A DNA stretch of 64,000 bases, taken from contig OY969585.1 in the NCBI GenBank assembly GCA_963701295.1, positions 2,016,001-2,080,000 on the forward strand, in the 5' to 3' direction. The notes under the pieces are model-generated. The model made no database searches. It saw nothing but the letters and a program-made list of their open reading frames with translations, and was not told the origin of the DNA. The translations under genes were made by a program, and so were the position numbers. The DNA comes from Ignavibacteriota bacterium (GTDB lineage: Bacteria > Bacteroidota > Ignavibacteria > UBA10030). Shown piece after piece: positions 1,683 to 42,767 of the stretch (positions are counted from its first letter, which is position 1; every line of letters starts with the position of its first letter).

Positions 1683-1711
1683 TTGACATTCGTTCCGAAT
1701 TATCCTAATTT
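1683..1711 (+). promoter_or_regulatory. Putative sigma70 promoter of ssb
   Basis: TTGACA, 17 bp, TAATTT; about 50 bp upstream of the ssb ATG with AAGGAGG RBS. Confidence 0.45.
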
Positions 1712-1761
1712 TATTTGGTATTCATGGTAGTTCTGCTGCTCACTTTAAGGAGGGAATTTGC

Positions 1762-2202
1762 ATGGCATCAAGGAGCATTAACAAAATTATTCTCATAGGA
1801 AACCTTGGACAGGATCCTGAGCTGCGGTACACCAGTAGTGGCGTCGCAGTTGCCTCTTTTTCGATGGCGACCAGTGAGTCTTGGAAAGATCAGGATGGCA
1901 ATGTTCAAGAAAAAACTCAATGGCATAAACTTGTCGCATGGAGAAAACTTGCAGAAATTGTAGGTGAATATTTGAAGAAAGGCAGCAAGGTGTATGTCGA
2001 AGGGCGCATTCAATATCGCAGCTACGACGATAAAAACGGTGTCAAGAGAGATATTACAGAAATCGTTGTCGATCAATTGCTAATGTTGGATTCCAAAGGT
2101 GTTAGCCATGCAAACACTTCCTCAGCTGACCCAACCGCACCATCGTTGCAACAGCCAGTTGAGGAATCAGGACCGGATAAAGTCGATGATCTGCCATTTT
2201 AA
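1762..2202 (+). CDS. ssb: Single-stranded DNA-binding protein
   Basis: INKIILIGNLGQDPELRYT N-terminus; acidic DDLPF C-terminus. Confidence 0.97.
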   Translation: MASRSINKIILIGNLGQDPELRYTSSGVAVASFSMATSESWKDQDGNVQEKTQWHKLVAWRKLAEIVGEYLKKGSKVYVEGRIQYRSYDDKNGVKRDITEIVVDQLLMLDSKGVSHANTSSADPTAPSLQQPVEESGPDKVDDLPF

Positions 2203-38352: not shown

Positions 38353-40704
38353 TTATTCTCCTTCAGCTAGCCAAATACCGTAATCCTCGGTGTCCGGTTT
38401 ACCCTCTGCTGTTTCCGGTGCGACTTTACGTTCGAGAATGCGGATGCCTTCATCTGAAAAACCGAATATATCATCTAAAGAAAGAATACGATCGAGTGCG
38501 GTCGGTTCAAAAAATTCCCGGAATTTATTTACTGCTTCATGCAGCTTTTCAAGGTAGTAAGCGGTGTTTTCATTAGCTCCTAGAGTGTCCCAATCTTCAA
38601 CTAAACGTGAAAAACGAGCAACATCGACATCTGTCTCAGTTCCAGAGATATAATACGAGAGAGTGGTATTAGCTTTGACAAAGAGACTTGAACGAACCGC
38701 TGCTTCCAATGCTGGAGAAGGAGTGATCCGACCGGCAGCAATTTCTTTCTGGTACGTCTCCGTATCTATACGTAAAAATTCTGTTTTACAGAAGTCCATG
38801 GGAGTCCAGTTGTGTTTGACAATCTGAGTGTAAGCGGTTGCGTATGTATGATGTAATCGTGTTAGATCGTTCATAAGCATGCATTCAATGAATCGTTGGA
38901 TGAACATTCTTAAATAGCGTTCCATCCCGCGTGCTATGAGACTATTACCTTTGATGAGGACATTGTTGCTCTGATCAAGCACCGCATAGTTACTTTTCCT
39001 GTAGCTGAGCATCTTCTTATAATGATGTAATGACACAAGAGTGATACCACTGGGGAGAGTGTTCGAGAGCCGATCTATAAAAATATCTCGGTTCGCCTCA
39101 CCAATAATATTATCCGGCATGAAGAGAAAGAATCCTTGATCGTCAGATTGGATGATGGTAGCATTAAAGAGTTCGATTTGATGTATGATCTCTTTCAGTA
39201 TTTCTCGGCTCGCAGTAAGTACGATTTCGGCTTGATCTGGATCGTTGTAAAGGCCTTTTGCAGAGCCAAGGGAGAGATGAAAAGAATCGAGCAGACGTTT
39301 CAGTGAATTCAACCGAGCAGCTGGATATGTGTCTCGCGATTGGATTGCATGCTTTTGGTCGAGTATTTTTTGCTGCAAAGAAGTGAGACTTATCAAGAGC
39401 GAGAAAAAAACATCGAGATCATCGGTTCTGGGCTTAATGTTTTGACGGAGGAGCATAGAGGGATATAATCCTTCGAGTTCAATATAGAGGACGTCGGAAA
39501 AGACGCCAATGTGATAAATCTCTGTTGGGATATTGATATTGCGAGAACCTTCCATGGGTTTGGGCACCGAATGTTTTTGCCGTACGTATTCTCTCAGTAT
39601 GAGTGATTCGATGCGTGAAGCCGCGCTCGTATGGATCAGCATTCTGAAATTGAATGGACACATCTGAGCAAGATAAAAAAGTGGAGGAAGAAGTAAGGTG
39701 CTGAGCTCATGTACAATAAGGGCATTTTGCAGAGATTGATTTGCCACTTGCTTTGGTGTGCGTTTCCGTTCTTTCATCAACCGATGAGATGGAAGGGCAT
39801 ATCCTATATCAAGAGGAATTCCGAAATGTTTAGCTAATGAAATCAAACTGAATGATTGCTCAACTTTCTTGGTGTTCATTTCTGTTTCTGCAATTGTTAT
39901 AATGTCCACGAGGTGTCTGCCGAAAACATCGTATGAAAACCATTCGCTTTCACCGAATCCTGCAGTGCTAAATCCGCTCAGTGTCCGCATATCGCTGCCG
40001 CTTCTGCCGATAGCAAATGTTATTTGTTGTCTTTCGCAAGCACGACCGAGAGCCGGTAGAATCGTTCCGAATAAATCATATCCCTCAATAATGTCAGGAT
40101 CAATTTCGTTGATGTGCTGGATACATTGTTTCAAGACAACCTGTTCATTTTGTTTTGGGGTTTTCAGGATATATTTGTTTCCATCACTTGTGAGAAGTGT
40201 GATGACGAGTATGTGTTCTTCAAAATTCTTACTGCCTCGTTTCTTTCCTGTTGCAGGCGCATATTGGACATCGATATGAAGACGTACAAGATCCTCAAAT
40301 TCCATTCCTTTGAACAATGTTGTTCCGGATTGCAAAAGAAACTGGCGTACCGGATCGGCACGAACCAGGATTTCTTTTAACTCCTGATACGATGAGATAC
40401 GCGGCGAATGGCTTTTATTGTATTGTCGAAGAATGCAGTGCACTGCTTCCCACATTTCACTCCAGCGGGAGAATGCTGCGATGAACTGATAGAAGTTGTT
40501 CCCGGCAAGCCTCTTCAGCCAGAATTTTTTTTGGAATTCCTTGATAAGCGCTTCGTCCGTTAGAAAAAAGAAGGGGAAGAATTCCACATCTCTGTGGTGA
40601 ATCTTCCCCTCAACTCGCTTGAACAACCTGATCATCTGATCGTTCAACTGTTGGACGGCAACAATGCGCTCTTCAGGATTATGTCCGTAGAGCAATGAGT
40701 CCAT
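38353..40704 (-). CDS. Family B DNA polymerase homolog with degenerate catalytic motifs
   Basis: DPDIIEG exonuclease region; ELEGLYPS (DxxSLYPS), KRLLDSFH (KxxxNSxYG), QSDDQG (DTDG), KSNYAVL, IKG. Confidence 0.8.
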   Translation of the reverse strand: MDSLLYGHNPEERIVAVQQLNDQMIRLFKRVEGKIHHRDVEFFPFFFLTDEALIKEFQKKFWLKRLAGNNFYQFIAAFSRWSEMWEAVHCILRQYNKSHSPRISSYQELKEILVRADPVRQFLLQSGTTLFKGMEFEDLVRLHIDVQYAPATGKKRGSKNFEEHILVITLLTSDGNKYILKTPKQNEQVVLKQCIQHINEIDPDIIEGYDLFGTILPALGRACERQQITFAIGRSGSDMRTLSGFSTAGFGESEWFSYDVFGRHLVDIITIAETEMNTKKVEQSFSLISLAKHFGIPLDIGYALPSHRLMKERKRTPKQVANQSLQNALIVHELSTLLLPPLFYLAQMCPFNFRMLIHTSAASRIESLILREYVRQKHSVPKPMEGSRNINIPTEIYHIGVFSDVLYIELEGLYPSMLLRQNIKPRTDDLDVFFSLLISLTSLQQKILDQKHAIQSRDTYPAARLNSLKRLLDSFHLSLGSAKGLYNDPDQAEIVLTASREILKEIIHQIELFNATIIQSDDQGFFLFMPDNIIGEANRDIFIDRLSNTLPSGITLVSLHHYKKMLSYRKSNYAVLDQSNNVLIKGNSLIARGMERYLRMFIQRFIECMLMNDLTRLHHTYATAYTQIVKHNWTPMDFCKTEFLRIDTETYQKEIAAGRITPSPALEAAVRSSLFVKANTTLSYYISGTETDVDVARFSRLVEDWDTLGANENTAYYLEKLHEAVNKFREFFEPTALDRILSLDDIFGFSDEGIRILERKVAPETAEGKPDTEDYGIWLAEGE

Positions 40705-40707
40705 TCA

Positions 40708-41478
40708 TCATTTCTGCAGTTTGTCCATAGTCATAAACGGTCTCAGCAAATCGATAGGCACGGGGAAAATGGTGGTGGAATTATTCTCCGTAGCAATCTC
40801 GCGAAGTGTTTGCAGATAACGCAGCGTAAGAGCGCTAGGCTGCTCGCTCAACACTTTTGCCGCATCTGAAAGCCGCTGTGATGCCTGGAATTCACCTTCC
40901 GCCGCGATAACTTTGGAGCGGCGTTCGCGCTCGGCTTCTGCCTGTTTTGCCATTGCCCGCTGCATTTCCTGTGGCAGGTCGATCTGTTTCACTTCAACAT
41001 TGGATACCTTCACACCCCACGGTTCTGTGTGGCTGTCAATAATTTGTTGAAGCTTCTGGTTAATCTTGTCGCGCTGTGAAAGAAGATCATCTAATTCGGA
41101 TTGTCCGAGCACGCTTCGCAATGTTGTCTGCGAAAGCTGGGAGGTAGCGAACAAATAATTTTCAACCGATACAACGGCTTTTTCTGGCTGCATTACACGG
41201 AAGTACACAACAGCGTTTACTTTCAACGAGACATTATCCTGTGTAATGATATCCTGCGGTGGAACATCCATAACGACTGTTCGCAGGCTCACCTTCACCA
41301 TTCTATCAATACCGGGCCATAACCAGACAAGTCCGGGCCCCTTGACTCCTAACAACCGTCCTAAGCGGAATATGACACCGCGATCATATTCGCGCAAAAT
41401 TTTAATTGAATTGACTGCGAGAAGAAAAAATGCAAATCCTAAAAGAAATATATATATAAATCCTGGTTCCATAATCAC
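40708..41478 (-). CDS. Slipin / SPFH (band 7) protein
   Basis: [34 protein letters not shown]. Confidence 0.95.
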
Positions 41479-42767
41479 TCCTTTGATATTGTGAATGGTT
41501 CGACGAATAATTTTAATCCGTTGATTTTAACAACTCGTATTCGACTACCTTTTTCAATTGTTCCTGACAGTGATTCAGCATTCCAGAGCTCTCCTTGCAC
41601 ACGAACGACACCTTCTGGTCTCAGCGTTTCGATAACATCTCCACTCTCTCCAGTGAGTCCTTCAGCGCCGGTTGTTGGTTTTCGGCGTTGAGCTTTAATC
41701 CCCAATCCGAGGATAACGACAAAAAAGAATGTGGTGAGAATGACCGATGCAAAGATGACTGACCAGGATATTTCTACAAACTCAAGAACACTTGAAGTGC
41801 GAATAAGCATAATTGATCCCAGAAAAGTTGAGACAGCCCCGCCGATTGCCAGCATGCCATGGCTGATGATTTTTATCTCTAAGAGGAAGAGAATAATGCC
41901 AAAAATGATGAGCGCAAGTCCGGCATAGTTGATTGGCAGAGTATGCATGGAATAGAACGCAAGCACCAGACTGATTACGCCAACGATGCCGGGAAAAATA
42001 GAACCAGGATTGTACAATTCGAGTATCAAACCGATAGTGCCGAGTTGAAAAAGAATGAGGGCGATATTAGGATTGCTTAAGACATCCAATAACTTTTCCG
42101 CCCATCCCATTTCCATTGGTTCAATCCGTGCACCTTTCGTATGTAATGTCACAGTTCTATCTACTGTTTCGACTTGTTTCCCGTCAATCTGAGAGAGCAG
42201 ATCATCGAGATTCTTCGCAATGAGATCGATAACGTTTGTGTCAAGAGCTTCCGTTTCAGTAATAGCTTGACTTCTACGGACTGCATCTTCTGCCCACTTC
42301 ATATTACGGTTTCGTTTTTCGGCGATCGTACGGATAAAAGCGGATGCATCATTAGTGACTTTATCGCTCATCACCGAATCCATTTTTCCTTCCATTTCTA
42401 CGGGATGCGCTGCTCCGATATTTGTTCCGGGTGCCATTGCCGCTATGTGTGCTGCCATAGTGATAAATACGCCGGCAGAACCCGCCTGAGCACCTCCGGG
42501 AGAAACATAGACAACGATAGGAATTTTCGATTCAAGGAATGAACTGACTATCACGCGGGTCGATTTGAGCAAGCCGCCGGGAGTATCCATCTGTATGATG
42601 AGGCATTCGGCATTCTTCTCGCGGGCATTTTCGATACCTCGTTCGATAAATGCCGCTGCTGCCGGATTGATAATACCGTCGATTTTTAGCACAACAACAT
42701 TCTGTGACAGTACAATGCCTGCACATATGATACTGAGAACAACAAGATGAAGAGTACGACGGAGCAT
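41475..42767 (-). CDS. nfeD: NfeD membrane-bound serine protease
   Basis: [20 protein letters not shown]-terminal OB fold GELWNA; precedes slipin. Confidence 0.93.

Follow-up and report, generated by a model that had tools for sequence, protein, structure and literature searches.

A full-length G3-group family B DNA polymerase that appears catalytically dead and is very probably kept by selection in an Ignavibacteriota bacterium

The window, i.e. the whole stretch of 64,000 nucleotides of contig OY969585.1 that was analysed, contains a gene for a family B DNA polymerase (PolB) homologue, which is read on the minus strand from position 40704 to position 38353. Its 783 codons include no internal stop, and the plus-strand frame across the same positions is riddled with stops. 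The stop codon of the preceding slipin gene ends at position 40708, and the 3-nt spacer before the ATG of the polymerase gene is a second TGA. The first-pass annotation of this DNA had described an intact 783-codon frame located 3 nt past the slipin stop and a full-length family B homologue, and both descriptions were confirmed. The best phmmer match of the protein is a Thermococcales PolB (E = 4e-20), two AlphaFold models of the protein have mean pLDDT values of 83.5 and 84.4, and the first model can be superimposed on known PolB structures along its entire length (Foldseek E = 1e-37; highest TM, 0.72). Full-length homology and predicted structure thus reveal the N-terminal, exonuclease, palm, fingers and thumb domains of the family B fold. 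The features identified are listed in Table 1.

Table 1. Features of the polymerase gene and of the two genes upstream of it (positions in the window).
Feature	Position	Strand	Basis
G3-group family B DNA polymerase, apparently catalytically dead, 783 aa	38353..40704	-	Homology, alignment, model, Foldseek
N-terminal domain, aa 1-135, best-conserved part	40300..40704	-	dN/dS 0.066; 72-93% of invariant sites kept in five families
Inactivated 3'-5' exonuclease domain, aa 136-345	39670..40299	-	Pfam PF03104, weak (E = 0.009); motifs
Eroded motif A, Asp to E409	39457..39480	-	Alignment to intact enzymes
Eroded motif B in fingers; Asn, Tyr and Gly lost	39274..39300	-	Alignment; fingers keep 33-50% of invariant sites
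Eroded motif C, second Asp to Q523	39133..39147	-	Alignment to intact enzymes
Thumb, aa 591-735, mostly kept, including R592, K640, Y651, R700 and K727	38500..38934	-	Residue retention
DDIFGF, candidate beta-clamp-binding motif	38458..38475	-	Position match in outgroup; LFxF-type in 36/37 dead copies
Disordered acidic tail with conserved IWL (IxL)	38356..38415	-	37/37 dead copies; pLDDT <50 in both models
Slipin/SPFH (Band 7), directly upstream	40708..41478	-	PF01145, E = 1e-39; adjacent in 65/76 loci
nfeD, first gene of probable operon	41475..42767	-	PF24961, PF25145, PF01957

Several other genes of the window were noted. A cold-shock protein gene (PF00313; 37875-38078, minus strand) is located 275 nt downstream of the polymerase gene on the same strand, and is present in 36 of the 75 related loci scanned, some of which are too short to show it. 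A homologue of DNA alkylation repair proteins (PF08713; 43096-43762, minus strand) is found just upstream of nfeD as two overlapping ORFs; it forms a single ORF of 221 aa in genome G004, and the split in the present genome is probably a frameshift. The sole ssb gene of the genome is also encoded in the window (approximately 1700-2200, plus strand; C1 2017687-2018199), approximately 36 kb from the polymerase gene. A scan of the locus for promoters and terminators gave results at chance level (10 vs. 10.7; 4 vs. 4.7). An apparent slipin-PolB fusion in genome G001 was attributed to an assembly gap of Ns.

The register of the catalytic motifs was set by the phmmer alignment to Thermococcales PolB and by alignment to intact orthologues. 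The ExoI motif reads IDVQ, in which D145 is kept and the Glu is replaced by Q147, the ExoII motif reads GYDLFGTI, and an ExoIII motif (YxxxD) is absent from the 783-aa protein in the alignment to intact orthologues, so that only the first Asp (D145) is left of the four acidic residues and the Tyr of a DEDDy exonuclease. In PolB enzymes, the Asp of motif A and the second Asp of motif C bind the catalytic metals. In this protein, motif A is ELEGLYPS, with E409 in place of the Asp, and motif C is SDDQG, in which D521 is kept and the second Asp is replaced by Q523. Motif B (KxxxNSxYG) reads KRLLDSFHL, in which K469 is the only one of the Lys, Asn, Tyr and Gly residues to be retained, the Asn having changed to Asp and the Tyr-Gly pair to His-Leu. 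The erosion of ExoI-III and of motifs A, B and C that had been described in the first-pass annotation was verified by alignment for every motif quoted. The polymerase site is dead in every genome of the genus with readable motifs, and sequencing error is thereby excluded. As judged from these motifs, the protein has lost the residues required for both DNA synthesis and proofreading.

A tblastn search with the protein identified no second copy in its own genome, whereas 37 of 41 genomes, among them all 15 of the genus, yielded homologues, as did 178 of the 201 genomes of the order; no homologue was found in the other 23. Intact orthologues at the same locus carry EVDTDG at motif C (the Glu is present in 32 of 34), and the dead copy, which has Q519 at this Glu position, is nested among the intact EVDTDG enzymes that share its locus. 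The motif C Glu is a mark of the G3 or PolEpsilonN-like group (Kazlauskas 2020, PMC7544198). In addition, one family, which appears to correspond to Chlorobi, carries a G3 gene in 31 of 31 genomes, matching the reported presence of G3 in all Chlorobi (Timinskas 2026, PMC12926913). On the basis of the motif and of this family, the protein is assigned to G3 PolB by descent. The first-pass annotation had called it a paralogue, but the genome has no other G3 copy, and the protein is orthologous to the intact enzymes found at the same locus. In the published accounts, G3 is one of the largest bacterial PolB groups and is uncharacterised, without experimental function, and its members possess both active sites and a beta-clamp motif (PMC12926913). 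The protein shares the canonical architecture (N-terminal, exonuclease and polymerase parts) of the EpsilonN-like clade of these accounts (PMC7544198, PMC12926913); however, both active sites are conserved in the G3 enzymes described there, whereas in the order studied here both have been lost repeatedly with retention of the full length. In outgroup family f23 (L173, L174, L175 and L176), the gene preceding G3 is presumably mnmG/gidA-like, and three complete genomes of this family have G3 within 9 kb of position 1.

Within the genus, the dN/dS values of the dead gene range from 0.11 to 0.19 (30 unsaturated pairs), with 0.066 for the N-terminal domain and 0.25 for the fingers. The pooled value of 0.134 (25 pairs) is similar to those of the neighbouring genes, i.e. 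0.042-0.142 for eight of them and 0.36 for a ninth; all values were obtained by simple counting from pairs that are non-independent. Polymerase-only relatives gave a dN/dS of 0.10 (10 pairs), which is below that of the dead gene, and fully intact G3 genes gave a sum of 0.29 over 16 pairs, a value raised artificially by the distant ones among them, since close pairs show 0.05-0.16. Neutral evolution of the dead gene, which together with catalytically intact orthologues had been named beforehand as an outcome that would overturn a functional reading, is not what these values show, and the view of a non-catalytic protein under selection is supported. All 37 dead copies in the set of proteins >740 aa described below are 765-798 aa long. 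In the genus, one frame, that of genome G008 (86% complete), is broken. Frameshifts or stops interrupt G3 frames in L036 (G008), L063 (G025) and L338-L339 (G184), reflecting either assembly error or recent pseudogenisation. Taken together, we consider it very probable that the protein is both catalytically dead and under selection.

To describe the states of G3 across the order, 87 proteins >740 aa were classified, in a set enriched on purpose for low-scoring copies, so that the numbers are counts and not frequencies: 34 are fully intact, 16 are polymerase-only, 37 are dead, and none is exonuclease-only. The label 'dead' was assigned from the motifs. In 15 of these 37 copies the two metal positions are still occupied by acidic residues, in one case by both aspartates; the copy in this window does not belong to the 15. 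The dead copies are distributed to families f1 (22), f2 (3), f5 (8), f7 (3) and f9 (1), and none was found among the 18 copies of f8. A tree was built from non-catalytic columns only (N-terminal domain and thumb) for 51 rows picked from the 87-protein set, 21 of them dead. It contains 10 state changes, at least 8 of which are forced by well-supported branches, and a single origin of the dead state was rejected (p-AU 3e-32). A DnaE tree shows 3 changes among 25 genomes and a slipin-NfeD-Maf tree shows 4 among 32, in agreement with several independent origins of inactivation. The order thus presents replicated, stepwise formation of a pseudoenzyme, in which the polymerase site was never seen dead with the exonuclease intact. 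The most eroded G3 copies are those of genus g29 (L187 of G104 and L333 of G237), which still keep the thumb and tail motifs; the fingers of the G104 copy are only 9% identical to those of intact enzymes.

Of the sites that do not vary among intact enzymes, dead copies from five families keep 72-93% in the N-terminal domain and 68-86% in the thumb, but only 33-50% in the fingers. Identity of the N-terminal domain to intact enzymes is 38-48% in 13 of 14 dead copies and 37-48% in polymerase-only copies, whereas that of the fingers is 4-29% and 37-60%, respectively. Residues W62, K64, W85 and R30 of the N-terminal domain are almost invariant. Basic residues R592, K640, R700 and K727 of the thumb have a family-weighted retention of 0.96-1.0, compared with 0.45-0.55 for positions 444, 448 and 469 of the fingers; we take these to be DNA and nucleotide contacts, assigned from archaeal structures. 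Some primer-contacting positions are gone (K571 to S, S587 to N, and the GGY linker motif). DNA binding is therefore partly plausible for the dead protein, with the basic residues of the thumb kept and those of the fingers lost.

An LFxF-type motif follows the thumb in 36 of the 37 dead copies. In this protein it reads DDIF, which fits the QxxLF consensus poorly; the same position is occupied by QTSLF and QIGLF, which are near the clamp consensus, in the outgroup G3 proteins of G160 and G086, respectively. Since residues 741-760 are rather ordered in the models (pLDDT 71-79), the motif may instead be structural. A complex prediction for the C-terminal 54 residues with DnaN of the genome gave a score of 0.01 (mark, 0.32), which counts neither for nor against clamp binding. 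At the C-terminus, an IxL tail is present in 37 of the 37 dead copies compared with a mean of 3.8 in shuffles, for a pattern that was written after the tails had been seen. It is also present in 40 of 50 active copies and in 31 of 32 outside f8, so that the excess of dead over active copies stems from f8. Because it is equally common in active copies outside f8, the tail is a family feature that has survived inactivation and was not acquired with it. It is unplaced in both AlphaFold models, as expected for a partner-binding motif. Docking of the tail in cis was considered and rejected, being absent in the two models, and the comparison of tail-less with tail-bearing copies gave no clear docking residues. 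Among 25 outgroup G3 enzymes, all of which are intact, 15 end in PF (e.g. DDVPF and EDEIPF) versus 0.1 expected from shuffles; PF-tailed loci include L154, L160, L170 and L172. These endings resemble the tail of SSB: the SSB protein of the genome ends in DDLPF, and an SSB tail of DDDIPF has been described (PMC5872125). We infer that the IxL and PF tails may bind the same kind of pocket.

The genome encodes one C-family alpha subunit (DnaE), Pol I, one Y-family polymerase and PolB2; no DnaE2 was found in it. The PHP residues of DnaE are intact. PolB2 is encoded in an operon of an iRadA-like gene, PPB2 (MGRT start) and polB2 with a divergent HTH-S24 repressor (L066:4374-8531; C1 approximately 1090373-1094530), which is organised as described in PMC11791011, is approximately 1 Mb from the G3 gene, and specifies a canonical-looking, QxxxLF-like clamp motif at the C-terminus of PolB2. 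A tblastn search with the dead G3 protein does not find PolB2. The dead gene itself lacks the marks of PolB2/G2, i.e. an iRadA-PPB2-PolB2 operon and a single-Asp motif C, and has nfeD and slipin as its neighbours. A second PolB locus, the type of which was checked in this genome only, is present in 17 of 19 genomes with dead G3 and in 16 of 17 with active G3; being equally frequent with both, it does not account for the inactivation and is not dependent on it. It had been proposed beforehand that the protein is a non-catalytic DNA-binding or scaffold protein, perhaps partnering an active paralogue. The first part is in line with the selection described above, but the partnership is not supported, because the only other PolB found is a G2/PolB2 enzyme with its own iRadA-like and PPB2 proteins. 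Replacement of an inactive DnaE PHP domain by the G3 exonuclease was also considered and rejected, as the PHP residues in this order are intact both where G3 is dead and where it is active. In two genomes outside the order, L222 (G054) and L223 (G122), the DnaE PHP is degenerate and the G3 exonuclease intact, which makes G3 a candidate proofreader there; a missing proofreader has been noted in Chlorobi (PMC12926913). A stand-alone DEDDh exonuclease of approximately 200 aa is encoded at L243 (C1 3371026-3371490), with a similar match in 13 of 14 genomes of the family searched.

The loss of catalysis recurred many times while the same outer surfaces stayed, which argues for an adaptor role in DNA maintenance. 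In the reading that we prefer, and to which we give an even chance, the protein is a non-enzymatic adaptor predicted to act at the beta-clamp and primed DNA, with its acidic tail recruiting a partner. Besides catalysis, G3 in this order would perform a non-catalytic function that persists once catalysis is lost. The DDIF motif would bind the clamp, G3 enzymes being described as carrying such a motif (PMC12926913), and the thumb would still grip duplex DNA, which together would place the protein at primed DNA, leaving the tail and the N-terminal domain to engage a partner. The tail may be a short linear motif for a genome-maintenance protein, with a role akin to that of the SSB-like PF tail of outgroup G3 enzymes. 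Catalysis itself may be dispensable, with DnaE having its own proofreading PHP, and Pol I, the Y-family polymerase and PolB2 covering repair synthesis. The gene would also be dispensable in some lineages, because it was not found in 23 of the 201 genomes of the order. A wider proposal, which is tentative and on the whole unlikely, is that bacterial G3 is a replisome-associated hub selected mainly for a structural role, with a clamp motif and with an SSB-mimicking or SSB-derived tail for the recruitment of genome-maintenance proteins. In this order the chemistry would have been discarded at least eight times, which would leave a stand-alone bacterial counterpart of the inactive C-terminal scaffold of Pol epsilon.

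Other explanations were weighed against the adaptor. Constraint is strongest in the N-terminal domain, which holds the near-invariant W62, K64, W85 and R30, and N-terminal domains of archaeal PolB enzymes read template uracil while T4 gp43 binds its own mRNA; these precedents suggest a stand-alone regulator or sensor of nucleic acids (ssDNA, damaged bases or RNA) that works without the clamp. However, conservation in every lineage extends to the motifs of the thumb and tail, and 18 shorter homologues of the domain show no consistent stand-alone form, having scattered lengths and many resembling contig fragments, so that this reading seems rather improbable; an atlas search with the domain returned only PolB-type or unnamed clusters. 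Recruitment to the NfeD-slipin membrane system, as a cytoplasmic subunit or tether comparable to poxvirus F12, would account for the position of the gene: of 76 loci, 65 have slipin directly upstream of G3, 5 lack it and 6 could not be assessed, the 3-nt gap is fixed in 13 of 13 measurable genomes of the genus, and no close slipin orthologue is present in four of five genomes that lack G3. Nevertheless, 42 of the 65 slipin-adjacent loci have an intact polymerase site, so that the adjacency does not account for the inactivation, and a similar degree of conservation is seen for the convergent maf and B12-domain genes. Furthermore, three dead copies in f7 do not adjoin slipin, outgroup G3 genes sit among other neighbours, and slipin is kept elsewhere in four genomes in which it was not seen beside G3 and in G036, in which G3 was not found. 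The adjacency is ancestral and predates the inactivation; it is compatible with co-transcription and gives no indication that the dead protein works for NfeD and slipin, and we regard recruitment as improbable. A loss of the tail tracking the loss of slipin was rejected, slipin being kept elsewhere and 15 slipin-adjacent loci lacking a strict IW.

Slow decay of a protein with no job of its own, the constraint coming from avoidance of misfolding or from operon structure, would be consistent with the genomes lacking G3, with the broken frame of G008 and with the relaxation of constraint from intact to dead copies. It can be given little credence, since the gene shows the same dN/dS as ordinary neighbours for dS values of up to about 1, the motif in the disordered tail is kept in all dead copies beyond what folding explains, and the gene lies behind nfeD and slipin, on which its truncation would not be polar. 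Weak or altered nucleotidyl transfer by a rearranged active site finds a precedent in PolB2, which was long thought inactive and is a translesion polymerase (PMC7544198), and 31 of the 37 dead copies retain D521, while 15 of the 37 are acidic at both metal positions. The present copy, however, has E409 and Q523, no conserved compensating set is seen (E, D, S, V, T, K or G in motif A; D, E, R, Q, N, S or T at the second Asp of motif C), and conservation is lowest in the nucleotide-binding fingers, which makes residual activity highly unlikely. An ImuB-like scaffold for the PolB2 mutasome of the genome, which was the idea of the first-pass annotation, would agree with the second PolB locus in most genomes with dead G3, but this locus is as frequent with active G3, and the PolB2 operon, approximately 1 Mb away, has its own iRadA-like protein, PPB2 and clamp motif (PMC11791011); such a scaffold is extremely unlikely. 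Under the adaptor reading, the independent inactivations mark the surfaces of the non-catalytic job, namely the N-terminal domain, the thumb, the DDLF motif and the tail, and the marked surfaces make the function of the whole G3 group testable.

Dead polymerases acting as scaffolds are already known, i.e. ImuB, the C-terminal module of Pol epsilon, and poxvirus F12. In the full-text literature searched, which includes few subscription papers, neither a dead G3, nor the gene order nfeD-slipin-polB, nor a G3 tail resembling that of SSB was described. ImuB is likewise a bacterial polymerase that has lost catalysis and persists in a non-catalytic role. It differs in being a Y-family protein encoded with partners (ImuA and DnaE2 alongside), whereas dead G3 has a B-family fold; ImuB binds the clamp, and dead G3 would share this property. 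The PolB of the PolB2/G2 mutasome resembles dead G3 in its inactive exonuclease and its altered motif C, but it is an active translesion enzyme with a conserved replacement site, encoded in an iRadA-PPB2 operon (PMC11791011), and is specified by a separate gene in this genome. The C-terminal module of eukaryotic Pol epsilon retains the whole PolB fold with both sites dead and serves as a replisome scaffold; it is joined to an active module and interacts with the CMG helicase, whereas dead G3 is a stand-alone bacterial protein (PMC7544198, PMC2669801). F12 of chordopoxviruses is likewise an inactivated PolB exapted to a non-enzymatic role, but it is viral, functions in virion morphogenesis, and has a different origin from dead G3 (PMC4304020). 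Dead G3 thus adds a stand-alone, apparently fully dead bacterial PolB to the known pseudo-polymerases.
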